The notes under the pieces are model-generated. The model had not been told where the DNA came from. It saw only the letters and a list, made by a program, of their open reading frames with translations, and did not search any database. From the NCBI GenBank assembly GCA_021784575.1, contig JAJYHX010000001.1, forward strand, positions 539,995 through 603,994: DNA of 64,000 nucleotides. The letters are read 5' to 3'. The position numbers and the translations under genes are program-made. This stretch comes from Nitrospirota bacterium. GTDB taxonomy: Bacteria; Nitrospirota; JACRHJ01. Shown here one piece after another: positions 16,475-33,034 of this stretch (positions are counted from its first letter, which is position 1; every line of letters starts with the position of its first letter).

Positions 16475-16482
16475 TAATTTCA

Positions 16483-16498
16483 GGGCACGGAAATTGCA
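16483..16498 (+). promoter_or_regulatory. sigma-54 (-24/-12) promoter
   Basis: GGGCACGGAAATTGCA is a near-consensus GGCACG-N4-TTGCA. It lies 72 nt upstream of the ATG at 16570. Confidence 0.7.
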
Positions 16499-16569
16499 TT
16501 TCACGATAGAGTTGGCGTGTTCTGGAAGAAACATTTGAAGAAACATTTAAGGTATAAGCGGGCTTTTTT

Positions 16570-17970
16570 ATGGATTTCCGGTTTTTAAAATTTTCTTTTG
16601 CCGCGGCGGGGTTTGTTGCGGCATTAATTTCCTCTTCTGCCGCCGCGGACATGGCGGTAAACCAGCCTATTGTTTTAAGCAAGGATACAGTCTGGTCGGG
16701 GAGGGTGAGCGTCGTGCAGGCGGTGAAAGTGCCCAAGAAGGTTAAGCTAAGGATAATGCCGGGGACGATGATAAAGTTCGGCGACAAGGCGGGGCTGACC
16801 GTCGAAGGAGTCCTGAAGGCGGCGGGGACGAAGTCCGCTCCGATTACCTTCACGTCTGTGGACAAGTCCCCAGTGGATGGGTGCTGGCCGGGCATAAACT
16901 TCAGCGAATCTGGAAAAGGCTCCGAGCTTAAGAGGTGCGTAATCTCCTATGCCGCTTCGATAAGCATAGACTCCTGCTCGCCGGAGATTAAAAACTGCAC
17001 GATTACACAGGGCCGGCAGGGAATAGAGCTTGCGAGAAAGGCAAAGCCGGTGATTTCCGGGAATACCATCCGGGACATTGCCGGATCTGGCATAAGCTGC
17101 CAGATGGGCTCATTCCCGACCATAGCCGGGAACACCATAGCCGGGTGCAGGCAATACGGCATTTTTTCTTCCCAGAATGCGGAGCCGCTTATAAAAAACA
17201 ATACCATTACCGGCTGCGATACCGGAATATCCGTCCAGGCGGCCCAGATCATAGAGGGAAACGTAATAAAAGACAGCAAGTGCGGCCTGTTCGCCAGCAT
17301 CGCCGGGAATGTCTTTGCCATCAAGGGCAACCGTTTCATAAACAGCGTAACGGGCGCGGTATGCCAGCAGTATACCTCTCCGGTATTCGAGAAAAACGAG
17401 TTTACGGGGAACAAGGAGGGCCTGGTGTGCTTCCGGGCGTCCAGCCCTCTTGTAAAAAACAACGATTTTTACAAGAACAAGAAAGCGATTCTCTGCATCC
17501 AGATATCCCACCCGACCATCACCGCCAACAACATACACGACAACGGCAAAGGGATATACCTGCATCTCTCATCCTACGCCCTGATAAACGGCAATAACAT
17601 CTGGGACAACAAAATCCAGGTGGAGCTCGGCAACATGTCGTCGGACTGGGAGCGCCGGGTCAAGAATAAGCCGACAAGGGGGCGCCAGGCCCAGAATATC
17701 AACATGGTAAGCCGGGCAAAGGCGGTGCCTGAAAAGCTGAGCGACGGGGCGAAGATAATGGGCAGCGTGGACGCCACCGGCAACTGGTGGGGCGCGGACG
17801 TTACGCGGGAAATGGACAGCAAGGGGCCGCAGGCAAACATAAAAAGCCTCATAGACGGTTACGACCGCCCGACGCGCACCTACAAAGGCTACTCCGGCGT
17901 ATACCTCGAAGACCGCATAAATTACAGAGGCTGGAAAAAGACAAGAATAAAAGACGCCGGGATTAATTAG
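16570..17970 (+). CDS. exported right-handed parallel beta-helix (NosD-like) protein
   Basis: 466 aa with a signal peptide, the shared N-terminal module (DTVWSGRVSV...LRIMPGTMIKF...ITFTS), many ~23-aa beta-helix turns (I.GN.I...) and NWWGADV near the C-terminus. Confidence 0.8.
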   Translation: MDFRFLKFSFAAAGFVAALISSSAAADMAVNQPIVLSKDTVWSGRVSVVQAVKVPKKVKLRIMPGTMIKFGDKAGLTVEGVLKAAGTKSAPITFTSVDKSPVDGCWPGINFSESGKGSELKRCVISYAASISIDSCSPEIKNCTITQGRQGIELARKAKPVISGNTIRDIAGSGISCQMGSFPTIAGNTIAGCRQYGIFSSQNAEPLIKNNTITGCDTGISVQAAQIIEGNVIKDSKCGLFASIAGNVFAIKGNRFINSVTGAVCQQYTSPVFEKNEFTGNKEGLVCFRASSPLVKNNDFYKNKKAILCIQISHPTITANNIHDNGKGIYLHLSSYALINGNNIWDNKIQVELGNMSSDWERRVKNKPTRGRQAQNINMVSRAKAVPEKLSDGAKIMGSVDATGNWWGADVTREMDSKGPQANIKSLIDGYDRPTRTYKGYSGVYLEDRINYRGWKKTRIKDAGIN

Positions 17971-18002
17971 AAAAATTGGGTCATTCCGAAAGGGGTTTAT
18001 TG

Positions 18003-19076
18003 ATGAGACGCTTCCTGTTTTTTTGCGCCGCCCTGTTTTTGCTGCCCTGCAACTCCTTTGCCGCGGGCATGATAAGCGGGAAGGTAAACTGCGAGGGAAA
18101 ACCGCTTGACGGGGCGTATGTATATCTCTACTCGAAGTCTGATACCGGGTTTAAGGGGCCGGCGGATTACAAGGCCGGGCCGACCAAGAACAAAGGCTCT
18201 TTCAGCATCTCCGCGGCCAAGGGCAGATACTACCTCATCGCAAAGAAACCGGTAAACGGGACGCTGGATAACCCCGCCGACGGGGATTACTACGCCTACT
18301 ACGGCGGGAATCCGGTGGTAGTCGGCGACGGCGAGACGATTAACATCGGCATAAACTGCTCGCCAATCCTTGCTGCTGCCGCAAAAAAGCCCGGCGGCAC
18401 GGGCATCCGGGGCCAGGTCTTCTTCGGCGGCAAGCCCCTCGACCGGGCGCGCGTTACGCTCTACCAGGACGACAGCACAATATTCCGGGGCATCGGCTAC
18501 GCCTCCATCCTCACTAACCAGAAAGGCCAGTTCGCCTTCTCGCTTGGGCCCGGAGCTTATTACGTCGTCGCGAGGAAACGCTTGGCAGGGGACAGCATGG
18601 GCCCGCTTGGCGTGGGCGACCAGTTCGGGTTCTCTCCGGATAACCCCGTGACGGTGGAAAAGGGAAGCTATACCATCATATCCATAAACTGCGTCAAAAA
18701 GCTTGTGAAAGTCAAAAAAGGCGGGCAGGAACTTACGCTCGGCGGGACGGTGAAGTCCGGCGAGACGGTGGTGCAAGGCAGGATTACCGACAAGAGCGGG
18801 AAACCTGTCGCCGGGGTATATGCGAGCGCGTACAGGGACTCGATGATGACCATGAAGCCGGACTTCATATCGAAGATGACAGGCCCGGACGGGATGTATT
18901 CCATAAGCCTCTCCGGGGGCGGCGTTTATTATATCGGCGCGCGCAACACCATAGGCGGCCCCGCCGAAAAAGGAGACCTCCTGGGGCGCTACGCCGGAAA
19001 CGACGACCACTCCGTAAAACTGAAGACCGGGGACAAGCTAAATAACATAGACATCGTCGTGGAGAAAGTTCAATAG
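18003..19076 (+). CDS. exported protein with 3 transthyretin/CarboxypepD_reg-like repeats
   Basis: Trimmed to the ATG at 18003 (MRRFLFFCAALFLLPCNSFAAG). Three repeat units carry YYLIAKK / YYVVARKR / YYIGARN and GD.Y(A/G).YGGNP-type motifs. Confidence 0.75.
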   Translation: MRRFLFFCAALFLLPCNSFAAGMISGKVNCEGKPLDGAYVYLYSKSDTGFKGPADYKAGPTKNKGSFSISAAKGRYYLIAKKPVNGTLDNPADGDYYAYYGGNPVVVGDGETINIGINCSPILAAAAKKPGGTGIRGQVFFGGKPLDRARVTLYQDDSTIFRGIGYASILTNQKGQFAFSLGPGAYYVVARKRLAGDSMGPLGVGDQFGFSPDNPVTVEKGSYTIISINCVKKLVKVKKGGQELTLGGTVKSGETVVQGRITDKSGKPVAGVYASAYRDSMMTMKPDFISKMTGPDGMYSISLSGGGVYYIGARNTIGGPAEKGDLLGRYAGNDDHSVKLKTGDKLNNIDIVVEKVQ

Positions 19077-19083
19077 GGGCTAT

Positions 19084-20241
19084 ATGAATAAATATCTCGT
19101 TTTTGCTCTGGCCGCTTTCTTCATGGTCCTGCCGTCCGCGGCCCTTGCGGGCACGGCGCCGAAACCGGACAGCTGGACAGGCTTCGAGGGCCGCGTGGTG
19201 TGCGACAGCCAGGTGTTCCAGGGCGCGCGCGTATATGTCTACAAGAGCTTCAAAGACATGCTGGCAGACAAGCCCACGGCCGTTTCCGCCCCGACGAAAG
19301 AAGACGGAAGCTGGAAGATGGACTGCCCGCCCGGGACATACTATCTCGCGGCCAAGCAGCTCGCCAAAGCCCCCGCAACCGGCGCGCCTGCCGCGGGAAA
19401 CTCCGGCGAAGTCCTTGGATACGATGGGCCGCTTTCCGTCGGGGACTACTTCTGTTTCCAGGGCAGCAACCCCATAACGGCGGTGCGGGGGAAATACACG
19501 CATGTCGGCTTTGCGCTCGTGAAATATGCGGCATCCGTCTCGTATTCGGATTCGAGCGACAAGGACAACGGCACCCTTACCGGCACCGTTACATGGAGCG
19601 GGCAGCCCCTCAAGGGCGCGATAGTCACGCTTTATATGGACGACAAGGACAACTTCCGGGGCCAGGGTTATTCCGCCTCGCCCCCGACCGGGAAAGACGG
19701 CAAATTCGACATGGAATTCCTGCCGGACACCGATTACTTCCTTATAGCCAGAAAACGGCAGAACGGCAAGAAGGCAGGCCCGTTGAAGGAAGGTGATTAC
19801 TTCGGATATTACGTTGCGAACCCGGTACACGTAAAGGCCGGCAAGGTGGCAACGGTTGATTTCGGAGTAATATCCAAGGCCGGTGAGATAGGCAGGGAAG
19901 ACAGCCTGTTCAGGGATACCGGGACGCATATCACCGGCAGGATACTGGACGACAAGGGCAGGCCGGTCAAGGGAGTTTATGCCTTCGCATACGTGGAGAA
20001 GGTGATGGCGCACAAGAGGCCGGAATTCATCTCCAGGCCCGCGGATAAAAGTGGAGTATACGTCCTGAACATCTCCAAGGGCGGGACATATTACATAGGC
20101 GCCCGTTCGAGATACGGCGGCACGCCCTCCTTCGGCGAGTGGTACGGCTGCTACGAAGGCGCAGGCGACCATCACGTGAATATAAAGACCGGCCAGGTTC
20201 TGAAGGGTATAGACATCCCCGTGGAGAAAATACCTCAATGA
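19084..20241 (+). CDS. exported protein with 3 transthyretin/CarboxypepD_reg-like repeats
   Basis: 385 aa with a signal peptide, paralogous to 13377..14483 and 18003..19076 (YFLIARKRQNGKKAGPLKEGDYFGYYVANPV). Confidence 0.75.
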   Translation: MNKYLVFALAAFFMVLPSAALAGTAPKPDSWTGFEGRVVCDSQVFQGARVYVYKSFKDMLADKPTAVSAPTKEDGSWKMDCPPGTYYLAAKQLAKAPATGAPAAGNSGEVLGYDGPLSVGDYFCFQGSNPITAVRGKYTHVGFALVKYAASVSYSDSSDKDNGTLTGTVTWSGQPLKGAIVTLYMDDKDNFRGQGYSASPPTGKDGKFDMEFLPDTDYFLIARKRQNGKKAGPLKEGDYFGYYVANPVHVKAGKVATVDFGVISKAGEIGREDSLFRDTGTHITGRILDDKGRPVKGVYAFAYVEKVMAHKRPEFISRPADKSGVYVLNISKGGTYYIGARSRYGGTPSFGEWYGCYEGAGDHHVNIKTGQVLKGIDIPVEKIPQ

Positions 20242-21101
20242 AATCAGCCGCCGCGGCGTTCATAATGCTGGCGCTTTTCGCCGGACAGGCCTGTTTGCAG
20301 GAATCGGCCGAGGCGGCTCCGACGGTCTACAACAAGGCATACATCCAGCACGACGAGACCTGGAGCGGAGAAATAAGGTTGATAGGACAGAACGTCGTGA
20401 AACGCGGATGCACCCTTACAATACTCCCCGGCACGATAATAAAATTCCCGTGGATTGACGAAGATAAAAATAATATAGGCGACGGGGAACTGACAATCGA
20501 GGGACGGATTATCGCCAAGGGCACGAAGGACAAGCCCATAGTGTTCACCTCCGCGCAGCCGAAGCCGAAGATGAAGGACTGGACGTTCGTGCAGATTGCC
20601 ATGAGCAGGAACTCCATCGTGGAATATTGCAAGTTCGAGTACGCCTTTACCGGGCTACAGGTGCATTACTCCACGGGGACGATAAAAGACAACCTCTTTA
20701 AAAACAACTTCGAGGGCATGAGGTTCTCTACGACGGATGTCCTTATAGAACATAACGACTTCATAGACAACGACTTCGGTATCCGATGCGAGGCTCTGGG
20801 CTCCCGCACGACCATCAGGAACAACCTCTTCCGGGGAAACGGGCAGACCTTCTTCCCGGTCCGTAATACATGGAACACTGTAAAGATATACGACAACAAC
20901 ATACTTGACAGTCGGGAATACGCCGTAAACTTCGGGCTGAGCCAGAAGCAGGATATAGATTTCACAAATAACTGGTGGGGCACCGCGGACGCCTCGGCCA
21001 TCGAGGCCCTGATATACGACAAGTCCAAGGATGATACCCTCGGCAAGGCGGATTTTATTCCGTTCCTTAAAGAGCCGGTGAAGGACTGCGGGATAGAATA
21101 A
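20238..21101 (+). CDS. exported beta-helix (NosD-like) protein, short form
   Basis: Trimmed to the ATG at 20238 (ATGA overlap with the upstream stop). It has a signal peptide, the N-terminal module ETWSGEIRL...LTILPGTIIKF...PIVFTSA, and the C-terminal NNWWGTADASAIEALIYDKSKDDTLGKADFIPFL. Confidence 0.75.
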   Translation: MKSAAAAFIMLALFAGQACLQESAEAAPTVYNKAYIQHDETWSGEIRLIGQNVVKRGCTLTILPGTIIKFPWIDEDKNNIGDGELTIEGRIIAKGTKDKPIVFTSAQPKPKMKDWTFVQIAMSRNSIVEYCKFEYAFTGLQVHYSTGTIKDNLFKNNFEGMRFSTTDVLIEHNDFIDNDFGIRCEALGSRTTIRNNLFRGNGQTFFPVRNTWNTVKIYDNNILDSREYAVNFGLSQKQDIDFTNNWWGTADASAIEALIYDKSKDDTLGKADFIPFLKEPVKDCGIE

Positions 21102-21170: not shown

Positions 21171-22103
21171 GTGAAAAAGTTCGGCAGGCGCGATTTTATA
21201 AAAGGCGCGGCGTCCTGTTCCGCCGCCGCGGGACTGAACCTTATCGAGGGCATAGACCCGCTCGGCCTGGTGTCGGAGGCGTTCGCGGGGACGGTCAGGC
21301 CCGTGATAGCAGTGGCGTCTAATAAGACGCCGGAGGCCCTGACGCGCGCGGCGGTAAACGCTATAGGAGGGATGGGAAAATTTGTAAAGCGCGGCGAGGT
21401 GGTCGTTGTAAAGCCGAATATCGGCTGGGACAGGGTCCCGGCGCAGGCGGCCAATACAAACCCTGACGTCGTGAAGACCGTAGTCATGATGTGCCTTGAG
21501 GCCGGGGCGAAAAAGGTGCGCGTGTTCGACAGGCCGTGCAACGACCCCCGCCGGTGCTACTACAGAAGCGGCATACAGGGCGCTGTGGAGTCCATTGGGA
21601 ATCCGGCTGCGGTAATCGAATTCGTGGACGACAGGAAGTTCGAGATACTCCCCATAAAGAACAGCACGACAATTCCGAGCTGGTCGTTCTATAAGCCCGC
21701 GTTTGAGGCGGACAAACTGATAAACGTGCCGATTGCCAAGCACCATAACGCCGCCCGGCTCACCATGACCCTGAAGAACGTGATGGGGCTTCTCGGCGGG
21801 AACAGGGGGAACATACACCACGACCTTGACATCGATATAGCCGAACTGAATACCGTCGTAAAGTTCAACCTCCATATCCTCGACGCCGTGAGGATTCTTA
21901 CGGCAAACGGCCCTCAGGGCGGACGCCTTCGGGATGTTAAGGCAATGAACAAGGTTATGGCGGGCACGGACCCCGTGGCTGTCGACTCTTACGGCGCGAC
22001 CCTCTTCGGCATAACGGGATACGACGTGCCGCACGTTGTGTATGCGCACAAGCTGGGAGAGGGAGAGATTGACCTGAAAAAGGTCCGGGTGATAAACGTC
22101 TGA
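21171..22103 (+). CDS. Tat-exported DUF362 domain protein
   Basis: 310 aa with a GTG start after GGAGGAG and the twin-arginine signal GRRDFIKGAA. The DUF362-like core is VVVKPNIGWDR...NTNPDVV...VFDRPCND. Confidence 0.7.
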   Translation: MKKFGRRDFIKGAASCSAAAGLNLIEGIDPLGLVSEAFAGTVRPVIAVASNKTPEALTRAAVNAIGGMGKFVKRGEVVVVKPNIGWDRVPAQAANTNPDVVKTVVMMCLEAGAKKVRVFDRPCNDPRRCYYRSGIQGAVESIGNPAAVIEFVDDRKFEILPIKNSTTIPSWSFYKPAFEADKLINVPIAKHHNAARLTMTLKNVMGLLGGNRGNIHHDLDIDIAELNTVVKFNLHILDAVRILTANGPQGGRLRDVKAMNKVMAGTDPVAVDSYGATLFGITGYDVPHVVYAHKLGEGEIDLKKVRVINV

Positions 22104-23653
22104 TGTCCGTGTCTTTTGTCGCGGCGTTTATCTTTGCGGTCGCAGCCGCGGTCCCGGCTCAGACGGTGCTGGCGCATAATCCGGCTAAAACCCTGGGCGA
22201 AGGGCAGATAAACAAGGCGCATAACCTGCGTCAGGGAAGCGAGGAAAGACGGCCGAAATCCCTGAAGGGCGCCTGGTTCGAGGACGTGACAGAGAAGTCC
22301 GGCATACCGCCGCTTAAGTATTCCGAGGGCGTAAATTTCTGCGATCCGGAGGGCGGCGGCCTGCCAGATTTGTTCACCCCGGTCGTTAAAGGAAAGGACC
22401 GGCTGTTTCGGAACAAGGGCAATTTCAGGTTCGAGGATATAACAGACGCCGCCGGGATAAAAGGCAAGGGCGGAAAAGACGGCATCGGCGCGGTATTTGC
22501 GGATTTTATGGGAAACGGTCTCGAAGACCTCTATATCGTAAAGGGCGCCTATCCATACGGTGACAACGTGATGTATCTCCGGAAGCCGGACGGCGCGTTC
22601 CGGGACGTAAGCGCGAAAGCGGGAGTAGTGAACAGAAAAAACGGCATATCGGCGGTTGCGGCTGATTTCTTCGGTTCAGGGAGGCCGGACATCTTCGTCT
22701 GCAACTGGGGGATGAACACGTTCTTCAGGAACGTCAGCGCAGGCGGGAAGCTGAAGTTCAGGGACGATACCGTTAAGGCCGGGCTTGGTAAAAAGGGCAT
22801 GAGCTGGGCGGCCGTAGTGGCGGATTTCAATGGCGACGGCAGACCGGATATCTTCGTATGCCGCGGCGGATACGGCAAGCCCGAGTCTCCAAAACTATAC
22901 ATGAATAACGGGGACGGGACGTTTACCGACAGGACAGCCCAGTCCGGCATAAGCGGCATAGACTGGTCCCTTGGCGCGGTATCGGCGGATTTCAATAACG
23001 ACGGCCTGCCGGACCTGTTTGTAACGAGCTACGACGGCCGGGACAGGCTCTATATGAACCTGGGCGGGGGCAGGTTCAGGGACGTAACCGAAACATCCGG
23101 GATAGACACCGGCCATTCGGTCGGCGCGGCGGCGGCGGACATTGACGGAGATGGTCTGACCGACCTCGTCGTGGCGCAGTTCGCGGGGCCGGTAAAGGTA
23201 TTTAAAAACCTGGGGGGCGGCAAGTTCAGGGAGATAAAAAAATCCGGGATAGGGGCGTGGAGCAGGAATGAAGGCGTAGCCCTCGCGGATGTGGACGGCG
23301 ACGGCGCCCCGGATATTTACGTGTCCAACTACGACGGACACAACAGGCTCTACCGTAACCTTACGGGCGGCAGACGCCTGTCGATAGCGATAACGGGCGC
23401 GCGGGGCGCCGGGACGGAGGCGAGACTCTACGAGACGGAGGGGGGCAAAAGGAGCCTTGCCGCATTCCAGGAACTGCCCGGCGTATCCGGTTTTTGTTCG
23501 CAGGCCCCGGACGAGTTCCTTTTTGCGCTGCCGGAAAAGAATGCGCGGTATGATGTCGAGATTATTTTTCCGGGCGGAGGCAAGAAGATGCTTTGTAATG
23601 TAAGGCCGGGCAGGTTGAAAGTAAAAAGCCAGGCAAAGGGTAAAAATCAATAA
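22103..23653 (+). CDS. FG-GAP/VCBS repeat protein with ASPIC/UnbV C-terminus (CRTAC1-like)
   Basis: 516 aa with a signal peptide, the repeats DFNGDGRPDIFV, DFNNDGLPDLFV, DIDGDGLTDLVV and DVDGDGAPDIYV, and an ASPIC-like tail. Confidence 0.8.
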   Translation: MSVSFVAAFIFAVAAAVPAQTVLAHNPAKTLGEGQINKAHNLRQGSEERRPKSLKGAWFEDVTEKSGIPPLKYSEGVNFCDPEGGGLPDLFTPVVKGKDRLFRNKGNFRFEDITDAAGIKGKGGKDGIGAVFADFMGNGLEDLYIVKGAYPYGDNVMYLRKPDGAFRDVSAKAGVVNRKNGISAVAADFFGSGRPDIFVCNWGMNTFFRNVSAGGKLKFRDDTVKAGLGKKGMSWAAVVADFNGDGRPDIFVCRGGYGKPESPKLYMNNGDGTFTDRTAQSGISGIDWSLGAVSADFNNDGLPDLFVTSYDGRDRLYMNLGGGRFRDVTETSGIDTGHSVGAAAADIDGDGLTDLVVAQFAGPVKVFKNLGGGKFREIKKSGIGAWSRNEGVALADVDGDGAPDIYVSNYDGHNRLYRNLTGGRRLSIAITGARGAGTEARLYETEGGKRSLAAFQELPGVSGFCSQAPDEFLFALPEKNARYDVEIIFPGGGKKMLCNVRPGRLKVKSQAKGKNQ

Positions 23654-23666
23654 CAGGAGGCCAGCC

Positions 23667-24272
23667 ATGCGCAGGAATTTTACACTCTTTATTTTGACGG
23701 CAATATTCTCAGCCGTTATGTCTATGCCGGCTTTTGCATGTGTCGGGAAGACGCTGATTATCGGGGCCGTCAACAGGCCGGACATGAACACGATGTCCCA
23801 GATGCTCAGCATACTCATAAACGAGCGAACCGGCACGACCGTCATATCGAAGTCGTTCAACAGCTTCCCAGCGCTGATGGACGCGATGAAGAACGGCAAG
23901 ATAGACATAATGCTCGACTACTCCGGCAGGTGCTATATAGACGTGCTGGGAAACAAGCCGGAAAGCAGCGCGCAAAAGGTGTTCGCCGCCGTTAAGGAAG
24001 TATACCAGCGCGAAAAGAACCAGATATGGCTCCCGCCTTTCGGGTTCTCCGAGAAGGGGGTTATTACCGGCAACTGCGGCGCAACCCCGGCCGTCGCCGC
24101 CCCGGTCTTGCGGAGGAGCACGCTTGAGAAATTCCCGGCCCTGCCGCGCGTGCTGGAGAAGCTTGCCGGGAAGATAAATAATGCGACCATCACCCGCCTT
24201 TCCAACGAGAGCCGCCACGGGAACGTCAAGGAGATTACAAGGAAGTTCCTGAAAGAAAACAGATTGATATGA
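23667..24272 (+). CDS. short OpuAC-like (glycine-betaine type) periplasmic binding-domain protein
   Basis: 201 aa with a signal peptide. The pattern LIIGAVNRPDMNTMSQMLSILINERTG...ALMDAMKNGKIDIMLDYSG and the tail ...EITRKFLKENRLI resemble the OpuAC family, but the protein is about one third shorter. Confidence 0.5.
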   Translation: MRRNFTLFILTAIFSAVMSMPAFACVGKTLIIGAVNRPDMNTMSQMLSILINERTGTTVISKSFNSFPALMDAMKNGKIDIMLDYSGRCYIDVLGNKPESSAQKVFAAVKEVYQREKNQIWLPPFGFSEKGVITGNCGATPAVAAPVLRRSTLEKFPALPRVLEKLAGKINNATITRLSNESRHGNVKEITRKFLKENRLI

Positions 24273-25174
24273 ACCGGAGAGGTTTCTTAAAGACCACCGC
24301 GATTGCCGGAGCCGGCGCGGTAATCGCCCCCTCTTTCATAGAAGAGGCCCTTGCGTTTGAAGGCCCGCTCGTTTCGATGGCGAAAGGGACGCCGCCTGCA
24401 AGGATTACAAGGGCGGCTGTTGACGCGCTGGGCGGGATGAGCGCATTTGTCAGAAAAGGGGATGTCGTGGTGGTGAAGCCGAACATAGGCTGGGACAGGA
24501 ACCCGGCACAGGCGGCGGATACGAACCCGGAGGTCGTAACCGAGGTGATAAGGATGTGCCTTGATGCGGGCGCCCGGAAGGTGAAGGTGTTCGACCGCAC
24601 ATGCAACGACGCGCGCCGGTGTTACGAGAACAGCGGCATAGGCCCCGCGGTCGAGGGCATTAAAGACCCGCGTGTGGAGCTTTCTTTCGTGGACGAGAGA
24701 AAATACAAGATGGTGGACATCCCGGCGGGCAAGCTGATAAGGAGATGGCCGATATATGAGGAAGCCCTGAATGCGGACAAGTTCATAAACGTCCCCGTCG
24801 CCAAGCACCACAGCGCCGCGCTCCTTACGATGGGCATGAAGAACGTCATGGGCGTAATCGGCTCGAACCGCGCCGTGCTGCACAGGGAAATCAACGACGC
24901 CCTGCCGGACTTGAACCGGGTTATAAAGACCAGCCTTGCGATAATCGACGCGACGCGGATACTGGTCGCCAACGGGCCGCAGGGCGGAAGTCTCAAGGAC
25001 GTGCGCCAGACGAAGACCGTAATCGCCTCGGCGGATGTTGTCGCGGCGGATACCGTCGCGGCGACTCTCTTCGGCAAGACGCCAAGCGAGGTGCGTTACC
25101 TTAAGCTTGCGCAGGACGCCGGCCTTGGGGTCGCGGATATAAACAGGATAAGATTGAAAAAGGTTTCGGTATAG
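24269..25174 (+). CDS. Tat-exported DUF362 domain protein (paralogue of 21171..22103)
   Basis: 301 aa with the twin-arginine signal NRRGFLKTTA. It aligns along its full length with the first DUF362 protein (VVVKPNIGWDRNPAQAADTNPEVV...VFDRTCNDARRCY). Confidence 0.7.
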   Translation: MNRRGFLKTTAIAGAGAVIAPSFIEEALAFEGPLVSMAKGTPPARITRAAVDALGGMSAFVRKGDVVVVKPNIGWDRNPAQAADTNPEVVTEVIRMCLDAGARKVKVFDRTCNDARRCYENSGIGPAVEGIKDPRVELSFVDERKYKMVDIPAGKLIRRWPIYEEALNADKFINVPVAKHHSAALLTMGMKNVMGVIGSNRAVLHREINDALPDLNRVIKTSLAIIDATRILVANGPQGGSLKDVRQTKTVIASADVVAADTVAATLFGKTPSEVRYLKLAQDAGLGVADINRIRLKKVSV

Positions 25175-25179
25175 GAGCG

Positions 25180-26736
25180 ATGAGAGTATTACGAAGGCTT
25201 TCGCAGGTTTTGGTATTCCTTGTTTTCGTGTTCCTTTTCCTGAATACGGAATACAAGGACAACGACGTTCTACCCTACGCCGTAAACGTGTTCCTGCGCA
25301 TGGACCCGCTTGTGGCGGGCGCGGCAACCCTCGCGGGCAGGGCTGTGATAAACCTCCTCTGGCCTGCGCTTGCCGTGGCCGGGATAACGCTCTTTTTCGG
25401 GAGGTTCTTCTGCGGCTGGGTATGCCCGATGGGCGCGATTCTGGACTTTGCGGACGCGTCAATCTTCAGGAAACTCAAGAGAAGGGTGAAGCTCCCTGCA
25501 AACCTTCCGAGGCTTAAATATTTTATTCTGTTCTTTCTTGCGGCGTCATCTCTTTTCACGCTCCAGATGGTTTTTCTGTTCGACCCCATAAGCATACTTA
25601 TACGCTCGCTCACAATATCCATCTTTCCCGGCATCAACATGGCGATAAACTCGCTTTTCGATGCGCTGTATTTCACCAACATCCACGCCGTAACCAGGGT
25701 CTCCGAACCTGTTTTCAGCTTTCTTAAGAATCACTTCCTCGCGTTCGAGCAGCCGCAGTTTCGCCTGGCCGCGCTGGTCGGCTCGATATTCCTTCTGATA
25801 ATCTCGGCGGAATATTTCCAGAGGCGGTTCTGGTGCAGGAACCTCTGCCCGCTCGGCGCTCTGCTGGGGCTTCTGGGACGTTTCGGCCTGACCAGGAGGC
25901 GGGTCGGGGATTCATGCATCTCCTGCGGGAAGTGCGAGCGGGACTGCCGGATGGGAGCGATAGGCGGCGACTTCAAATCCACCAACGCGAGCGAGTGCGT
26001 AGAGTGCCTTGACTGCCGCAGCATATGCCCGGAAAAAGCCGTGCATTTCGTCGGGCGCGGCAGGCCGGAGCTTTTGCCGGTAAACGCGGGCCGTCGCGGA
26101 GTCATTACATCGCTGGCCGTCGGCGCGGTGGCGGCGCCGATATTCCTTTCCGAGGGATACAGGAAGGTCTCCGACCCGTCCCTTATCCGCCCTCCAGGCG
26201 CGCTCTCCGAGGAGAAGTTCCTGGACAGATGCACCAGGTGCGGCGAGTGCATGAGGGTATGCACCGCAAACGGCCTCCAGCCGGCTTTATTCGAGGCGGG
26301 GCTTAGCGGTCTCTGGAGCCCGATACTGGTGCCCAGGATGGGCTACTGCGAGTTTAACTGCACGCTCTGCGGGCAGGTCTGCCCGACCGGCGCGATAAAG
26401 CGCCTCAGCCCCCGCGAGAAAAGGAAGACGAAGCTCGGACTTGCGGAATTCGACAGGAGCCGGTGCATCCCCTGGAAGGGCGAGTCGAACTGCATAGTCT
26501 GCGAAGAGCACTGTCCTACGCCGGTGAAGGCCATCAGGCTCCGGGAGGAGCAGGTAACGACATTGTCGGGCGAGGTCATCAGAATTAAAAGGCCGTATGT
26601 GGACGAGAACCTCTGCGTGGGCTGCGGGATATGTGAAAACAAGTGCCCACTTACGGGGCATCCGGGGATAAAATGCACGTCCCGAGGCGAATCCCGCGCA
26701 CAGGGGGCTGAGCTTCTGACCACGGACGAAGGATAG
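25180..26736 (+). CDS. membrane-bound polyferredoxin, NapH/NosR/MauN-like
   Basis: 518 aa. The TM helices carry two CX3CP motifs (FFCGWVCPMG, FWCRNLCPLG). The C-terminal half has about six Fe-S cluster motifs (CISCGKCERDC, CVECLDCRSICP, CTRCGECMRVC, CTLCGQVCP, CIVCEEHCP, CVGCGICENKCP). Confidence 0.8.
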   Translation: MRVLRRLSQVLVFLVFVFLFLNTEYKDNDVLPYAVNVFLRMDPLVAGAATLAGRAVINLLWPALAVAGITLFFGRFFCGWVCPMGAILDFADASIFRKLKRRVKLPANLPRLKYFILFFLAASSLFTLQMVFLFDPISILIRSLTISIFPGINMAINSLFDALYFTNIHAVTRVSEPVFSFLKNHFLAFEQPQFRLAALVGSIFLLIISAEYFQRRFWCRNLCPLGALLGLLGRFGLTRRRVGDSCISCGKCERDCRMGAIGGDFKSTNASECVECLDCRSICPEKAVHFVGRGRPELLPVNAGRRGVITSLAVGAVAAPIFLSEGYRKVSDPSLIRPPGALSEEKFLDRCTRCGECMRVCTANGLQPALFEAGLSGLWSPILVPRMGYCEFNCTLCGQVCPTGAIKRLSPREKRKTKLGLAEFDRSRCIPWKGESNCIVCEEHCPTPVKAIRLREEQVTTLSGEVIRIKRPYVDENLCVGCGICENKCPLTGHPGIKCTSRGESRAQGAELLTTDEG

Positions 26737-26931: not shown

Positions 26932-27840
26932 ATGAAGAAAGCCCTGCCGATTTTCCTTATGTTGTCCCTGCTCACTTTCCCCGCCTGCTCCACGCAAAAA
27001 ACCGCGCTTACCGGCAGCCAGATACAGGGACTGCCGGCGAACACAAGGACGGTCGACCTGCTGATAGAGCAGCTGAAATCCCCGCGCCCGCAGAGGGACA
27101 TGGCGTATAAAAGGCTTATCGAGATAGGGGAGCCCGCCGTGCCGAAGCTGCTCAAGCTTCTGAACAGCGGCGACCCGGACATGCGCGAGTATGCCGCCGC
27201 GATTCTCGGCTCCATCGACGACAAAAGGGCCATAAAGCCGCTCATAGCCATGCTTCAGGGGCACAGGCGCAGGCGATATATCGCGGCCTGGGCGCTGGGG
27301 CAGATGAGGGCGAAACAGGCGATTGCGCCGCTTGTGGACGCCCTGTCCGTGAAGAACGACGCAATCCAGAAGGAGGCCACGCGCGCCCTGATTAACCTGG
27401 GGCCGGACGCCGTGCCCGCGCTTATCGCGGCCCTAAAAAGCCCCGACGTGGATACAAGGGAGTTTTCAATCCGGGCGCTTGGAGAGATAGAGGACAAGCG
27501 GGCGGAGAAGCCGATTATCGGGCTTTTAAACGATAAAAATAACGGGGTCACGGAGGTCGCGGCGCTCGCTCTGGGGAGCGTGGGGACCGGAAAATCCATA
27601 CCTCCGCTAATCAAAACCCTGGGTTCGGAAGACGTTACGACCAAGGTTAACGCCTCGATTTCACTGGGACAATTGGGGGCGAAGGCCGCGATCCCCACGT
27701 TGACGGCGATGCTGAAGACCGACAAGGATTCCTACGTGCGGCAGTGGTGCGCCAGGGCGCTTGAGAACATTACCGGCAGGAAATACAAGTATAAAAACGA
27801 GAATGGCGTCATGGTCTTTCCCTATAACCTCTACAGGTAA
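26932..27840 (+). CDS. HEAT-repeat (PBS-lyase type) lipoprotein
   Basis: 302 aa with the lipobox LLTFPAC and repeated ~31-aa units (D..VR..AA.ALG.I.D.RA..PLI..L). Confidence 0.75.
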   Translation: MKKALPIFLMLSLLTFPACSTQKTALTGSQIQGLPANTRTVDLLIEQLKSPRPQRDMAYKRLIEIGEPAVPKLLKLLNSGDPDMREYAAAILGSIDDKRAIKPLIAMLQGHRRRRYIAAWALGQMRAKQAIAPLVDALSVKNDAIQKEATRALINLGPDAVPALIAALKSPDVDTREFSIRALGEIEDKRAEKPIIGLLNDKNNGVTEVAALALGSVGTGKSIPPLIKTLGSEDVTTKVNASISLGQLGAKAAIPTLTAMLKTDKDSYVRQWCARALENITGRKYKYKNENGVMVFPYNLYR

Positions 27841-28673: not shown

Positions 28674-29984
28674 ATGGAACCCATAACCCGCATATGGGGC
28701 GCGGGCAGGAGGTTCTTCTCCTCGCTTCGCCTTGCGGTATTCCTGCTCATCATGCTTGCGGTGGTGTCCGTTTTCGGGACATTCCTGCCGCAGGGGCAGG
28801 CCCCGTCTTTTTATATCGGCAAATACGGCGTCCACGGTTACAAATACCTGAAACTCCTCGGCGTGATAGACCTCTATCACTCCTGGGGTTTCCGCGCGAT
28901 TATGTCCATGCTTGCCGTAAACCTCCTGGTGTGCAGCATGGGCAGGCTTAAACGGCTTATGCAAAGGACGCTTAAACCAAATGCCGAAAAAACCGGCGGC
29001 GACATAAAAAACCTCAGGATACACAACGAACTGCCCGCAACGTCCGGGGCGGAGATACTTGAACGCTCCCTGAGGGACAGAAAATACAGCGTAATCAAGC
29101 GCGGGCGCTGTATTTACGGCTTCAAGGGGAAACTTGGCCCCTGGGGAGACATGGTAACACATGCGAGCATCCTGCTTGTTCTCATCGGCGGCCTTATCGG
29201 CAGCATGGGTATGGTGGGCACGGTCAATATCTACGCAGGAGATTATGCGGACAGGTTCTACGACTGGGGCTCCGGGAAAGAAAAGCCGCTGAATTTCAGG
29301 CTGTACGTGGATAAGTTCACACTGGAGCATTACCCGGTGGGGATGAAGGTGAACGTGCGGGACAGCAATACCGGCGCGATGCTCGGGACGTTCAATGCGA
29401 TAGAAGGCAAGTTCTTCTCCATACCCGGCACGAAGTTAAAGATAAAGCCGAAGAACGCGGACATGGAGAGACGCGAGGCAATCCTTGACATCTACAACGG
29501 GGAAAACTTCCTGGGTTCTTACGATACCGGCGCGCCCGACGGCGGACTCGCCGCGCCTCCGAGCCTGGGATATATCTTTACCGTAGGCTCTTTCAACGGG
29601 CCGGTGCTCAAGAATATAGCGAGCAGTGTCCGGATAGTGAAAGACGGCAGGGAAGCGGACCGGGCAGTGATAGAGATAAACAACCCCATGGAATACGACG
29701 GTATGACCATATACCAGACGTCATACGCGCGTGATGCGCTCGGCAGATACTATTCCGGTTTTCAACTGGTGGAGGACCCGGGAGTCCCGGTCGTCTGGGC
29801 CGGGTTTATCCTTCTCCTGGCGGGACTGTTCCTCTCGTTTTTCTTTTATCACAGACAGATATGGATAACCGTCGAGGACGGGCGTATATTCATCGGCGGG
29901 ACATCCAACAAGGACATACAGGGTTTCATGCGCGAATACGGCGGGATAATCAAGAGCTTTATGCAGGAAGTTGAGCCGGTTTGA
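28674..29984 (+). CDS. ResB/CcsB-like cytochrome c biogenesis family protein
   Basis: 436 aa with a ResB-type N-terminus (FFSSLRLAVFLLIMLAVVSVFGTFLPQ), a large periplasmic domain and a C-terminal TM helix. No CcsA/ResC gene is adjacent. Confidence 0.7.
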   Translation: MEPITRIWGAGRRFFSSLRLAVFLLIMLAVVSVFGTFLPQGQAPSFYIGKYGVHGYKYLKLLGVIDLYHSWGFRAIMSMLAVNLLVCSMGRLKRLMQRTLKPNAEKTGGDIKNLRIHNELPATSGAEILERSLRDRKYSVIKRGRCIYGFKGKLGPWGDMVTHASILLVLIGGLIGSMGMVGTVNIYAGDYADRFYDWGSGKEKPLNFRLYVDKFTLEHYPVGMKVNVRDSNTGAMLGTFNAIEGKFFSIPGTKLKIKPKNADMERREAILDIYNGENFLGSYDTGAPDGGLAAPPSLGYIFTVGSFNGPVLKNIASSVRIVKDGREADRAVIEINNPMEYDGMTIYQTSYARDALGRYYSGFQLVEDPGVPVVWAGFILLLAGLFLSFFFYHRQIWITVEDGRIFIGGTSNKDIQGFMREYGGIIKSFMQEVEPV

Positions 29985-31522
29985 TGCATTTCGGCCTCAG
30001 GACCAAGGTAATAACGTTCGCATCCTGCCTGGTTGTCGCGATAATCGGGATAAACGCGGCGGTAATGCTCCATACCGAGAAGACCGACAGCAAAAAACAG
30101 CTCGAGGAGCAGGGGAAACTCTTCGCCAAGCTTACCGCCACGGAAGTCGTCCATACTTACGGCTCGCTGTCCTGGGAATCCGGCGGAAAGCAGGACGTCC
30201 GGACGCAGATGCTGAAGTTCTTCAGATACTACCCGGACCTTGTCCGGCTCACGATTATCAGCCAGTCCGGGCTTATACTATGGGATTCGGGCGGCGCTCC
30301 GGGACATACCCCGGTTGTGGACGAAGCGCTCCTGAAAAGGCTTCCCTCGAACGGGATCGATACTGAAAAATACTACGGGCCGGACGGCGAGGAGTATATG
30401 GATATCCTGGCCCCCGCCGCGGAAAACGGCGGGCCGCAGTTCCTGAAGGTCAGGTATATCATATCCTACCGTTCGCTGAAACAACGGCTTGTAGGCATAA
30501 GGAAGCAGTTCCTGCTCCTGACCGTTATCTTCATGTTCGTTGGCGTGTTTACGGCGGCTGCCTTTGCGGCAAAGCTCATAAACCCGATACTTGCCCTGAA
30601 GGAAAGCGCCCGCGCGATAGAAGGAGGCGACCTGGACCAGGCGGTTGAGCTTGACCGCGAGGACGAGCTCGGCGAGCTTGGCCGGTCGTTTAATTCTATG
30701 GCAGGCGCGTTGAAGGGGCACAGGCGCGACCTGGAGGAGGCGAACAGGAACCTCCTGGCCGCGAACGAGGAGCTGAGGCTCCTCCAGACGGAGCTTGTCC
30801 GCTCCGAGAGGATGGCCGCGGTGGGCCAGCTTGCGGCGGGGCTTTCCCACGAGATAGACAACCCTATCGGCGTGATAATGGGTTTTGCGGAGCTTTTGCT
30901 GGAAGACACGCCTCCTGAAGACCCAAGGCGCGAAGACCTTGCCAGGATACTGGACGAGAGCAGGCGCTGCAAACGCATTGTCAGGGGACTGCTCGATTTC
31001 TCTCGCCCTCCGGCCCTCGGAGTCGTGCCGACCGACCTTGCGGAGGCGCTTGGCCAGACGGTCGAAGCCGCGAAGACACAGAGACTTTTTCGGGATGTGA
31101 GGATAAACCTTGATAGTTCCCCCGTCCCGAAAGTAATGGCCGACCCGGACAGGCTGAGGCAGGTATTTATGAACCTTATGATAAACTCCGCCCAGGCGAT
31201 GCCGGACGGCGGGAATATAGACATAAAACTCCGGCATGAGGAGGCGGCGGGTGAAGTGCGGATATCTTTCTGCGACAGCGGCCCCGGAATAAGTCCCGAA
31301 AACATGGAAAGGATTTTCGAGCCTTTCTATACCACCAAACGACCGGGCGAGGGAACGGGGCTGGGGCTTCCGATATGCGTCCGGCTCCTTGAAGAGCATG
31401 GAGGCAGGGTTTGGGTGGAAAGCGCCTCCGGGAAGGGCGCGACATTCACCGTTTCGCTCCCGGACGGGCAGATTTCCGATGAAGTCCCCGGAGAGACTGA
31501 CGGAACAGGCGAAAATTCTTGA
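29984..31522 (+). CDS. sensor histidine kinase (periplasmic sensor, HAMP, HisKA, HATPase)
   Basis: Start is the ATG at 29984 (or TTG at 29981), overlapping the ResB stop. It has two TM helices, a HAMP domain, the H-box SHEIDNPIGVI, the N-box NLMINSAQAM, and the G-boxes DSGPGI and GTGLGLPI. Confidence 0.85.
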   Translation: MHFGLRTKVITFASCLVVAIIGINAAVMLHTEKTDSKKQLEEQGKLFAKLTATEVVHTYGSLSWESGGKQDVRTQMLKFFRYYPDLVRLTIISQSGLILWDSGGAPGHTPVVDEALLKRLPSNGIDTEKYYGPDGEEYMDILAPAAENGGPQFLKVRYIISYRSLKQRLVGIRKQFLLLTVIFMFVGVFTAAAFAAKLINPILALKESARAIEGGDLDQAVELDREDELGELGRSFNSMAGALKGHRRDLEEANRNLLAANEELRLLQTELVRSERMAAVGQLAAGLSHEIDNPIGVIMGFAELLLEDTPPEDPRREDLARILDESRRCKRIVRGLLDFSRPPALGVVPTDLAEALGQTVEAAKTQRLFRDVRINLDSSPVPKVMADPDRLRQVFMNLMINSAQAMPDGGNIDIKLRHEEAAGEVRISFCDSGPGISPENMERIFEPFYTTKRPGEGTGLGLPICVRLLEEHGGRVWVESASGKGATFTVSLPDGQISDEVPGETDGTGENS

Positions 31523-31648: not shown

Positions 31649-33034
31649 ATGCCTGACATAAGGATACTGGTCGTAGACGACGAGCCTGGAATGCGCAGCC
31701 TGCTGAGCCGGGTGCTGGCCAAGAGCGGGTATTCCGTAAGCGCGTTCGAGAAAGGGGCGGATGCGCTCGAATCCATAAACTCGGAAGACTATGATCTTGC
31801 AATCCTCGATATCGAGATGCCGTCCATGAACGGCATCGAGCTTTTAAAGAAAATCAAGATAAAAGACCCGTCCCTGTCCGTCGTGATGATAACCGCCTAC
31901 GGCTCGCTCCAGTCCGCCGTGGAGGCGATGCGTCTGGGGGCGTACGATTACTTGAGCAAGCCCTTCGAGATGGAGGAGATAAAGCACGTAGTCGGGAAGG
32001 CTCTGGAGCGCGAGCGGCTGATACGGGAGAACCGTGAGCTTCACAAGGAACTGGAGGAACAATACCGTTTTACGGGCATAGTGGGCAAAAGCCCCAGGAT
32101 GGAAGAGGTCTACGAGCTTGTAAACCAGGTGGCGGCGACCAACGCAAGCGTCCTGATACAGGGCGAATCCGGCACCGGCAAGGAGCTCGTGGCCCGCTCT
32201 ATTCATTACAACAGCAGGCGGAAGGGCCAGCCGCTCGTGATACTCAACTGCGCCGCGCTCGCCGAGGGGGTGCTGGAATCAGAGCTTTTCGGCCATGAAA
32301 AGGGCGCCTTTACGGGCGCGATAAAGCGAAAGGCCGGGCGTTTCGAGCTGGCGCACGAAGGCACGATTTTCCTGGACGAGATAGGCGAGATACCGATTTC
32401 CACGCAGTTGAAGCTCCTCAGGGTATTGCAGGAGCACGAGTTCGAGCGGGTAGGCGGAGAGAAGACGATAAAGGTTGACGTCCGGATTATCGCCGCGACG
32501 AACAAGGACCTCATGGAGGCCGTAAAAGAGGGACGTTTCCGGGAAGACCTGTACTACCGCCTGAATGTCGTAAACATAAGCATCCCGCCGCTCAGGGAGA
32601 GGAAAGACGACATCCCCGGTCTTGCCGAGCACTTTCTTGCGAAGTTTTCCGGGGAGACGGGCAAGAAAGTCGAAGGCATAGAACCCGCCGCCATGGACAT
32701 GCTTACGCGCTACGACTGGCCTGGAAACGTCCGGGAACTGGAGAACATAATAGAGCGCGCGGTGGTGCTCGAAAAGAGCGAGACGGTTACTCCTTCGAGC
32801 CTGCCTCTTACGCTTCGCCATGAGGCCGGGGACGCGGACGTCGTAAAGCTTCCGGAAGGCGGCGGGACACTGACCGATGTCCTGGAGGAACTCGAAAGAC
32901 AGCTTATTGTCAAGGCTCTGAAAGAAAAAAGCGGCTCGCAGACCGCGGCGGCGGCGGCCCTGGGTCTTAAACGCAGCACGCTTCGCTATAAACTGGAAAA
33001 ATACGGGCTTGTATCGGCGGAACTCTCTGAATAG
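31649..33034 (+). CDS. sigma-54-dependent response regulator (NtrC family)
   Basis: 461 aa with an REC domain (ILVVDDEPG, DLAILDIEMP), an AAA+ domain with GESGTGKE and the GAFTGA loop (ELFGHEKGAFTGA), and a C-terminal HTH (AAAALGLKRSTLRYKLEKYGL). Confidence 0.9.
   Translation: MPDIRILVVDDEPGMRSLLSRVLAKSGYSVSAFEKGADALESINSEDYDLAILDIEMPSMNGIELLKKIKIKDPSLSVVMITAYGSLQSAVEAMRLGAYDYLSKPFEMEEIKHVVGKALERERLIRENRELHKELEEQYRFTGIVGKSPRMEEVYELVNQVAATNASVLIQGESGTGKELVARSIHYNSRRKGQPLVILNCAALAEGVLESELFGHEKGAFTGAIKRKAGRFELAHEGTIFLDEIGEIPISTQLKLLRVLQEHEFERVGGEKTIKVDVRIIAATNKDLMEAVKEGRFREDLYYRLNVVNISIPPLRERKDDIPGLAEHFLAKFSGETGKKVEGIEPAAMDMLTRYDWPGNVRELENIIERAVVLEKSETVTPSSLPLTLRHEAGDADVVKLPEGGGTLTDVLEELERQLIVKALKEKSGSQTAAAAALGLKRSTLRYKLEKYGLVSAELSE

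Follow-up and report, generated by a model that had tools for sequence, protein, structure and literature searches.

The window analysed here is a stretch of 64 kb from a Nitrospirota genome that was assembled from a mine-drainage metagenome. At 21171-26736 (+) it carries five tightly packed genes, two of which encode DUF362 proteins with predicted signals for twin-arginine translocation (Tat) and the last of which encodes a polytopic polyferredoxin. By comparing this locus with related loci in other genomes, we found that the conserved unit consists of a Tat-bearing DUF362 gene directly followed by a polyferredoxin gene, the other genes being lineage-specific additions. We argue that this pair encodes a two-gene periplasmic oxidoreductase, in which the Tat-exported DUF362 protein would be wired by the polyferredoxin to the quinone pool or to the cytoplasmic membrane face, a reading to which we assign a probability of roughly 0.6.

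The genes adjoin with overlaps of 1-4 nucleotides, as between the stop of the OpuAC-like gene and the start of the DUF362-B gene (4 nucleotides), or with gaps of 5-13 nucleotides, and a gap of 195 nucleotides lies 3' of the polyferredoxin gene. An initial annotation of this DNA had placed four of them correctly but had missed the OpuAC-like gene at 23667-24272.

21171-22103 (+): DUF362-A, 310 amino acids, predicted Tat-exported protein with a LarA-type fold, lineage-specific copy (PF04015, 2e-47)
22103-23653 (+): FG-GAP/ASPIC-type exported repeat protein, 516 amino acids, accessory (FG-GAP_3, 1.7e-58, 7 stretches; weak UnbV_ASPIC match)
23667-24272 (+): half-size OpuAC-like binding protein, 201 amino acids, probably a lipoprotein (OpuAC, 2.1e-11)
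24269-25174 (+): DUF362-B, 301 amino acids, predicted Tat-exported protein with a LarA-type fold, the copy directly 5' of the polyferredoxin gene and thus in the conserved position (PF04015, 1.5e-49)
25180-26736 (+): polytopic polyferredoxin, 518 amino acids, NapH-like membrane part and NapG-like four-cluster domain (NapH/NapG models, Fer4_5 and Fer4)

Export signals and domains of the two proteins

The assignment of both copies to DUF362, made in the initial annotation, holds in hidden Markov model (HMM) searches: PF04015 scores 162.3 bits for DUF362-A and 169.2 bits for DUF362-B against a cut-off of 24, with profile positions 1-199/200 covered in both. The two copies are 52% identical, and in a neighbour-joining tree a local duplication is a possible origin of the two. 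The NCBIfam model NF052623 (Npun_F2552 family) also matches DUF362-A (6.5e-20) and DUF362-B (5.6e-26); from the style of the locus tag, its name presumably refers to Nostoc punctiforme, which we treat as a lead and not as a test. The family is large, as phmmer retrieved 6139 representative clusters at E<=1e-3, of which 414 are left at E<=1e-30.

Both proteins begin with a twin-arginine motif:

21183-21203 (+): GRRDFIK of DUF362-A, residues 5-11 (Pfam TAT_signal, 19.6 bits, cut-off 22.7)
24272-24292 (+): NRRGFLK of DUF362-B, residues 2-8 (TIGR01409, 26.1 bits, cut-off 16.7)

The Pfam TAT_signal model stays just under its cut-off in both copies (21.3 bits in DUF362-B), and TIGR01409 exceeds its own in DUF362-B. 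Among the genome orthologues 68 of 70 have the motif, as do 112 of 114 database homologues and 114 of 131 full-length representatives that are 36-57% identical to DUF362-B. Ahead of the mature part, A29 is conserved among the orthologues and forms the basis for a putative cleavage site of the A-x-A type. The Tat signals that had been noted on both copies are thus present as consensus motifs of a Tat substrate, from which export itself is predicted.

A second DUF362 subfamily, 27% identical to DUF362-B, has the Tat motif in 73 of its 120 members. In three loci (L013, 5412-6293 (-); L085; L086) it is paired with a radical-SAM gene and not with a polyferredoxin, and in L013 the radical-SAM protein itself starts with a twin-arginine motif, SRREFFK.

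The features of the polyferredoxin are the following:

25411-25428 (+): first CX3CP motif (C78GWVCP), at the end of transmembrane helix (TM) 2 (motif, Cys conservation)
25834-25851 (+): second CX3CP motif (C219RNLCP), after TM4 (motif, Cys conservation)
25915-26031 (+): two four-Cys motifs (C246-C256, C273-C283), NapH-like, predicted on the cytoplasmic side (NapH and NosR C-terminal models match here)
26092-26148 (+): internal twin-arginine R305 R306 and weakly hydrophobic TM5, predicted Tat-dependent helix (conservation, hydropathy)
26230-26649 (+): NapG-like domain with four four-Cys motifs (C351, C390, C429 and C479 series), predicted periplasmic (NF007012 NapG, 1e-26, residues 327-499)

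Of the NCBIfam models, those of NapH align with residues 1-157 and those of NapG with residues 327-499, all of them below their equivalog or subfamily cut-offs (76.9 vs 213 and 68.4 vs 234 bits for NapH; 93.7 vs 269 and 79.3 vs 179 bits for NapG). Judged by these scores the protein is related to NapH and NapG and is not an orthologue. The NosR model covers residues 202-280 only, with 60 bits against a cut-off of 1000, and a Pfam scan of the polyferredoxin found no FMN_bind family. The 'NapH/NosR-like' label of the initial annotation is therefore kept for its NapH half, to which a NapG-like half is fused, and dropped for NosR. The two CX3CP motifs recognised earlier (C78, C219) are present and conserved, and are followed by two four-Cys motifs at residues 246-283 and four more at 351-489; each of the 28 cysteines in the cluster motifs is conserved to 99-100% among 72 polyferredoxin orthologues. 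The sequence between the two four-Cys groups reads AGRRGVITSLAVGAVAAPIFL, and in the same orthologues R305 is conserved to 89% and R306 to 99%. Hydropathy analysis indicates TM1-4 plus a TM5 at residues 307-323, the maximum of which is 1.63 compared to 2.19 for TM1, and TM5 is followed by the basic residues R328 and K329.

Tooke et al. (2017) described a polyferredoxin that is a NapH-NapG fusion with five transmembrane helices and a conserved twin-arginine before a weakly hydrophobic TM5, with three cytoplasmic and four extracytoplasmic clusters predicted and with homologues in Nitrospirae (PMC5449189). Reporter fusions to the protein of delta proteobacterium MLMS-1, Q1NSB0, demonstrated in that study that its membrane insertion requires the general secretory pathway (Sec) as well as Tat, and the authors assigned the protein no partner or function; DUF362 is mentioned zero times (PMC5449189). 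Five transmembrane helices, the twin-arginine and the weak TM5, basic residues after it, the NapH and NapG halves and 28 cysteines for three plus four clusters are also present here, and the window protein is placed in the Q1NSB0 family by this architecture and the published description and not by direct alignment. Because four of the six four-Cys motifs follow the conserved twin-arginine and TM5, which is the Tat-translocated segment in this family, only the other two are predicted to be cytoplasmic, and the earlier claim of about six cytoplasmic iron-sulfur (Fe-S) motifs does not stand. Four of the seven predicted clusters would then lie on the periplasmic side, to which DUF362 is predicted to be exported.

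Conservation of the gene pair across genomes

One genome per GTDB species was scanned with two DUF362 peptide patterns, which match more than 600 species-level genomes, and the best 80 of at least 600 loci were kept. These loci were chosen by DUF362 similarity alone, after which all genes of the window cluster were searched in them and their open reading frames (ORFs) were clustered de novo. In 73 of the 80 loci a polyferredoxin gene with the orientation of the DUF362 gene starts within 400 bp of it on the 3' side (median gap 40 bp), in five more the polyferredoxin gene has this orientation too but is 0.8-5.3 kb further downstream, and one locus stops at a contig edge. Since the loci were selected by DUF362 only, and a polyferredoxin nevertheless follows in 73 of them, the pairing is not due to chance.

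The survey of co-occurrence with NapH-like genes that had been proposed for this locus thereby extends to about seven phyla. Carriers of the pair are found in Nitrospirota, Desulfobacterota (Geobacter, Geomonas, Geotalea, Desulfobulbus, Desulfobacula, Smithella and Syntrophorhabdus), Acidobacteriota, Verrucomicrobiota, Zixibacteria, Planctomycetota (a metagenome-assembled genome, MAG, of Tepidisphaerales) and a MAG labelled Leptospira. In Geomonas limicola the pair stands by itself, with no other resemblance between the neighbourhoods, and de novo ORF clustering yielded no third conserved neighbour gene across the 80 loci. Gene content, conservation and synteny thus define the unit as DUF362 with its Tat signal, directly followed by the polyferredoxin.

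The FG-GAP gene, which the initial annotation had included in the unit, does lie between the DUF362 copies, but it falls outside the conserved core: the gene and a second DUF362 copy occur only in the window, L002 and L004, and FG-GAP is absent from 78 of the 80 loci. An FG-GAP/ASPIC paralogue is encoded at 11533-13185. The arrangement as first proposed, in which a NapH/NosR-like protein with about six cytoplasmic clusters serves two DUF362 enzymes in a unit that includes the FG-GAP protein, agrees with the CX3CP motifs, with the matches to NapH and C-terminal NosR models and with the Tat signals on both copies. It is nevertheless hardly tenable in that form, given the conserved twin-arginine and TM5 ahead of the NapG-like domain, in a family whose TM5 is Tat-dependent and whose four clusters are extracytoplasmic, given a NosR score far under its cut-off in a protein that lacks the FMN-binding periplasmic domain, and given the scarcity of the FG-GAP gene.

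The OpuAC-like protein matches choline, carnitine and ergothioneine binding proteins at chain residues 15-128 and 226-289; since the matches skip the residues in between, lobe 2 appears to be deleted. It has a probable lipoprotein cysteine (…PAFAC), and its gene stands directly 5' of DUF362 in eight loci (L002, L004, L017, L021, L029, L036, L051 and L075). In nine loci the pair ends a block of genes for NosD-like beta-helix and CarboxypepD_reg proteins; block and OpuAC-like gene occur together in seven loci, the block alone in L070, and in L021, a short contig, the OpuAC-like gene alone is seen. The order NosD/CarboxypepD_reg/NosD/CarboxypepD_reg/NosD/half-size binding protein/DUF362/polyferredoxin is found in the Desulfuromonadales-type loci L017, L029, L036, L051 and L075. 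This embedding of the pair, together with the richness of the window in exported proteins, could suggest that DUF362 is not an enzyme at all but an exported protein that helps to assemble the polyferredoxin or is a structural part of it, or else a member of an array of exported cell-envelope proteins. We consider this very improbable: such a block is absent around the pair in about 70 of the 80 loci, and the conserved DUF362 residues are polar and clustered in the segment that corresponds to the LarA active site, as is typical of catalysis or cofactor binding. An oxidoreductase composed of DUF362 and the polyferredoxin is the reading we retain.

Two further associations were considered as members of the conserved module and rejected as clade-specific. 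In four loci (L017, 10830-12092 (-); L051; L053; L075) an ORF resembling HgcA, which contains NVWCAAGK, the cap-helix motif of mercury methylation, is found some 3 kb 3' of the polyferredoxin gene; all four belong to one clade of the DUF362 tree, so that this synteny is probably inherited and not functional. In the Syntrophales-type loci L019, L059, L061, L064 and L074 two further genes flank the pair: one for an exported protein of 331 amino acids, and one for an aldo/keto-reductase with a Tat signal and a C-terminal ferredoxin domain of two clusters, possibly another periplasmic protein served by the polyferredoxin.

The surroundings in the window are rich in genes for exported proteins. The regions 10660-21101 and 34350-38009 hold arrays of exported NosD-like beta-helix and CarboxypepD_reg/transthyretin-like proteins, with a fusion of a beta-helix and a pyrroloquinoline quinone (PQQ) propeller at 14480-16474, and a radical SAM/SPASM protein, which may be a peptide- or protein-modifying maturase, follows the second group at 38178-39326. 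The first gene after the polyferredoxin (26932-27840) encodes a protein with HEAT repeats of the PBS-lyase type, whose signal resembles that of a lipoprotein (…TFPAC); the position of this gene is kept in L002 and L004, and a homologue is also found in L021. At 28674-29984 lies a gene for a ResB-like cytochrome c biogenesis protein with no adjoining CcsA/ResC gene; directly 3' of it comes the gene for a histidine kinase with a HAMP domain (29981-31522) and next the one for a sigma-54 response regulator (31649-33034). The region 3755-9143, 5' of the exported-protein array, encodes two sulfur-transport proteins of the YeeE/YedE type (3755-4918 (-) and 6680-7759), along with a binding protein of the phosphonate type (5259-6179) and, at 7938-9143, either a class-V aminotransferase or a cysteine desulfurase.

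Fold and candidate cofactor site of DUF362

DUF362 is without an established function in the searchable literature, as the initial annotation had it, but the family is not a structural orphan. DUF362 and LarA belong to the same Pfam clan, CL0471, and DUF362 figures as an outgroup of the LarA superfamily (PMC11770544). We obtained an AlphaFold2 (AF2) model of DUF362-B from a 51-sequence alignment, with a predicted local distance difference test (pLDDT) score of 89.8 and a predicted template modelling (pTM) score of 0.86. The 18 best PDB matches that Foldseek found for this model are all nickel-pincer enzymes of the LarA superfamily (E 2.5e-7 to 1.2e-4, probability 1.0), among them lactate and malate racemases and LarA homologues with a single His, with query TM-scores of 0.35-0.55, mostly 0.44-0.55. 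The next matches are generic Rossmann methyltransferases, at E >3e-4 and TM-scores <0.3. On the basis of this model, DUF362-B is predicted to have the LarA fold.

The relation is also visible in Pfam, since Lactobacillus plantarum LarA, used as query and identical to chain 5HUQ_A, matches PF04015 at E=5e-5, and three genuine Loigolactobacillus lactate racemases have precomputed PF04015 matches. Fragments of LarA from T. thermosaccharolyticum and I. pallida have no PF04015 match, so that among our query sequences this bridge is provided by the L. plantarum protein alone. Sequence searches of the PDB with DUF362-B alone or with its 51-sequence profile gave nothing useful, and an HMM of the DUF362 subfamily did not match LarA even with filters off. 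Our search for LarA homologues yielded only sequences of 75-99% identity and hence a shallow LarA profile, with which hhalign E-values were 0.08-0.19; a narrow-profile hhalign run against the single LarA sequence gave a 16-column match that we discarded as spurious. DUF362 is a sister family of LarA and not a member of the LarA family.

LarA uses His108 and His174 as catalytic bases, Lys184 to tether the cofactor and His200 as nickel ligand (PMC12611868). Mapping of LarA fragments through PF04015 places H174, K184 and H200 on profile positions 111, 121 and ~136, which correspond to H181, K191 and H205 of DUF362-B, and the sole local alignment between the DUF362 and LarA profiles in hhalign is this H-K-H segment in the same register. 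Alignment of the nickel-ligand histidines (LarA H200, DUF362-B H205) needs an indel of two residues. These three DUF362 residues are the probable equivalents of H174, K184 and H200, and the proposed site is:

24800-24883 (+): AKHH-x9-K-x13-H segment of DUF362-B (K179, H181, K191, H205), proposed cofactor site (conservation, Pfam bridge, hhalign)

Across 132 sequences (DUF362-B and the 131 representatives at 36-57% identity to it), H181 is conserved to 100% and K191 and H205 to 99% each, and K70, P71, N72, K179, R201 and D227 are each conserved to at least 95%. An equivalent H-K-H set, with the spacing H-x10-K-x13-H, is present in 120 of 120 members of the second subfamily, and DUF362-A retains both KPNIGWDR (residues 81-88) and AKHH...K...H (H192, K202, H216). 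For KPNIGWDR there are two candidate counterparts in the N-terminal part of LarA, SSDHTRP and GFHRP. Among close orthologues the arginines R77, R116, R117 and R201 are invariant, which suggests binding of an anionic small-molecule substrate or of a cofactor phosphate.

The conserved Cys/His ligands that the initial annotation had suggested looking for are hence found as a His-Lys-His set, but no cysteine is conserved family-wide. An Fe-S or disulfide site formed by C97, C112 and C118 was considered and rejected, as C97 and C112 vary among close orthologues and C118 is conserved to only 33% among diverse representatives; the absence of a family-wide conserved cysteine disfavours an Fe-S site in DUF362. 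A Tat signal that is kept across phyla in a protein without Fe-S motif is best explained by a cofactor or metal that is inserted in the cytoplasm. We tentatively consider a Lys-tethered, nickel-containing cofactor derived from nicotinic acid, i.e. of the nickel-pincer type, which is plausible and unproven. A simpler metal bound by His, Asp and Lys is a reasonable candidate too and is rated slightly higher, at somewhat less than even odds, with the remaining probability going to neither.

About 7 kb downstream of the pair, at 33739-34653, lies a gene for a NicO-family (Ni/Co) permease with a His/Asp/Glu-rich loop (HDHEHEHDHDHEHDH…), which may bear on the nickel hypothesis. It stands 3' of the histidine kinase and sigma-54 regulator pair, and it is overlapped for about 300 nucleotides by the ORF at 34350-35786, the true start of which is probably further downstream. 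A NicO-like gene was not found in the other loci, whose flanks are short.

The second of these options amounts to the same DUF362-polyferredoxin module with a different cofactor: the His/Lys/His/Asp pocket would bind an ordinary metal (Ni, Fe, Co or Zn, possibly with a carbamylated Lys) instead of a pincer nucleotide and would perform one-electron or metal-centred chemistry on a periplasmic substrate. A redox metal is better matched than a hydride carrier to the single electrons that Fe-S wires deliver, the invariant K70, N72, D109, K179, H181, K191, H205, D227 and D261 could make up a metal site, the NicO-type permease lies nearby, the window is without lar genes, and Tat export of proteins that are metallated in the cytoplasm is well established. 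The three pincer-site residues of LarA, however, are the best-conserved residues of DUF362 at nearly identical spacing, two invariant histidines are few for a typical mononuclear or binuclear site, and the permease gene has no counterpart in the short flanks of the other loci. Taken as a whole, this version is possible but doubtful.

DUF362 might also be a periplasmic racemase, epimerase or isomerase of the LarA kind that has no net redox turnover, in which case the polyferredoxin would only maintain the redox state of its cofactor, through reductive activation or repair, or would serve another enzyme. Every characterised protein of the LarA fold is a 2-hydroxyacid racemase or epimerase (PMC11770544; PMC7583248), extracellular DUF362-CBM9-dockerin proteins occur without any electron partner (PMC5742341), and the second, partly Tat-bearing subfamily goes with a radical-SAM gene in place of a polyferredoxin. 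A wire of seven clusters with 28 conserved cysteines, adjacent in 73 of 80 genomes, would on the other hand be a large investment for activation alone; the second catalytic base, His108 in LarA, is apparently an Asp in DUF362; and no other conserved candidate client of the polyferredoxin is found nearby. Such an isomerase appears improbable, and we continue with net redox chemistry by a DUF362 oxidoreductase.

A putative periplasmic oxidoreductase and its relatives

Physical interaction of the two proteins, direction of electron flow, cofactor and substrate are what we infer in the following scheme. DUF362 would fold in the cytoplasm, most likely be loaded with its cofactor there, and be exported by Tat. 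Of the polyferredoxin, Sec would insert the first four helices, and Tat would insert TM5 and carry the C-terminal four-cluster domain to the periplasm. The seven predicted [4Fe-4S] sites, three at the cytoplasmic face and four in the periplasm, would then act as a wire between a (mena)quinone site or the cytoplasmic face of the NapH-like part and the catalytic subunit DUF362, docked on the periplasmic four-cluster domain. By analogy with NapGH, electrons would most likely flow from quinol via the polyferredoxin and DUF362 to the substrate, making DUF362 a terminal reductase, although the reverse, a periplasmic dehydrogenase feeding the quinone pool, is possible. The active site would be a LarA-type pocket lined by K70/N72, D109, K179, H181, K191, R201, H205 and D227. 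The Nitrospirota lineage of the window has two copies of the proposed catalytic subunit, A and B, which presumably share one polyferredoxin, and the FG-GAP protein and the half-size binding protein would be accessory.

A number of points weigh against this scheme or parts of it. No function is assigned to DUF362 in the searchable literature, nor is there an experiment on any member of the family, and one locus (L041) has no polyferredoxin gene in the 3.1 kb downstream of DUF362. Scans for promoters and terminators gave counts near those of shuffled sequence and no operon boundary, and the sequencing runs that were looked up are DNA runs of the mine-drainage metagenome only, so that the operon structure is read from gene spacing. 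On the side of the fold, neither Lar_N (PF09861) nor LarA_C (PF21113) matches either DUF362 copy even at E<=10, pairwise Smith-Waterman alignments of DUF362 and LarA are not significant (z = 1.7, -0.4 and 0.2) and align the wrong regions, and the LarA fragments of T. thermosaccharolyticum and I. pallida lack the PF04015 match noted above. Within the candidate site, both the hhalign alignment (E=0.08-0.19, probability <1%) and the PF04015 fragment match (E=0.055) are weak. The position of LarA His108 appears to be taken by the conserved Asp109 in DUF362-B, as extrapolated from the Pfam mapping, or by D76 in another hhalign register of low confidence; some LarA homologues have only one catalytic His (PMC12611868).

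The nickel-pincer cofactor itself meets two more objections, one chemical and one genetic. The only known role of this cofactor is to carry two electrons, as a hidden hydride, and neither for DUF362 nor for the polyferredoxin is a flavin predicted that could split a hydride into single electrons for the Fe-S clusters. Neither larB, larC nor larE is found in the window or in about 6.3 kb beyond its downstream end (locus L087). A LarA homologue of Geobacter metallireducens has been characterised, which implies that one or more lineages akin to those with the pair can make the pincer cofactor. About 15% of genomes have larB, larC and larE without larA, from which pincer-binding proteins other than LarA have been inferred, notably in cyanobacteria (PMC11796402). 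That DUF362 represents these missing users, with a cofactor tethered to K191 and loaded in the cytoplasm, exported by Tat and wired to the respiratory chain through the seven clusters of the polyferredoxin, is an unlikely proposal at present.

The observation on which the initial annotation was built is thus partly confirmed and its interpretation partly supported: a candidate new periplasmic redox enzyme is upheld in outline by the pairing, the Tat motifs and the conserved site, but not in the sidedness of the clusters or the membership of the FG-GAP protein. We know from the searchable literature of no description of a LarA-like DUF362 combined with a Sec/Tat polyferredoxin. Through the pairing, the broad DUF362 family gains a testable function, as does the Tooke-type polyferredoxin, which was previously without a client and which belongs to one of the few families of membrane proteins with experimental support for a dual Sec/Tat insertion. 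The module could be a new periplasmic terminal oxidoreductase of Geobacterales, Desulfobulbales, Syntrophales, Nitrospirota and others that drive the anaerobic cycling of carbon, metals and sulfur. If the pincer proposal were true, DUF362 would be the first nickel-pincer enzyme in net redox (respiratory) chemistry rather than in racemisation, and the Npun_F2552 family, if it is cyanobacterial, would be a candidate for the cyanobacterial pincer-binding protein (PMC11796402). With the His-Lys-His set conserved in an exported, Fe-S-coupled relative of LarA, use of the pincer outside LarA can be tested directly, as a system for co-expression of LarB, LarC and LarE in E. coli exists.

Among known systems, the LarA superfamily (5HUQ, 6C1W, 7S91, 9Q3J) has its predicted fold in common with DUF362 (Foldseek E down to 2.5e-7) and a probable counterpart there of its H174/K184/H200 set, in an H-x10-K-x14/16-H segment of the same register; DUF362 differs in being about 120 residues shorter and in having a Tat signal and an Fe-S wire as neighbour; the wire would imply net redox chemistry and not racemisation. 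To our knowledge no signal peptide has been reported for characterised LarA enzymes, which we take to be cytoplasmic.

On the side of the electron supply, NapGH of E. coli and Wolinella succinogenes and the related NosGH and MauMN pass quinol electrons to a Tat-exported periplasmic enzyme. NapGH shares with the window module two CX3CP motifs and, as predicted for the module, two cytoplasmic four-Cys motifs and a Tat-dependent periplasmic ferredoxin with four clusters, whereas it consists of two proteins and the polyferredoxin is one fused polypeptide that the corresponding models recognise at 68-94 bits compared to cut-offs of 179-269. The clients differ as well, being NapAB, NosZ and methylamine dehydrogenase in those systems and, as proposed, DUF362 here. 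No nosZ gene is found in the window. NosR has in common with the polyferredoxin a NapH-like core with CX3CP and two cytoplasmic four-Cys motifs, but the latter is without the N-terminal periplasmic FMN-binding domain and has an extra NapG-like domain. The logic is also that of MsrPQ (YedYZ) and similar pairs, in which a cofactor-loaded Tat substrate is encoded next to the membrane partner that supplies it with electrons of the respiratory chain (PMC5449189), with Mo-pterin and haem b in MsrPQ and a LarA-type fold and Fe-S clusters predicted in the module described here.

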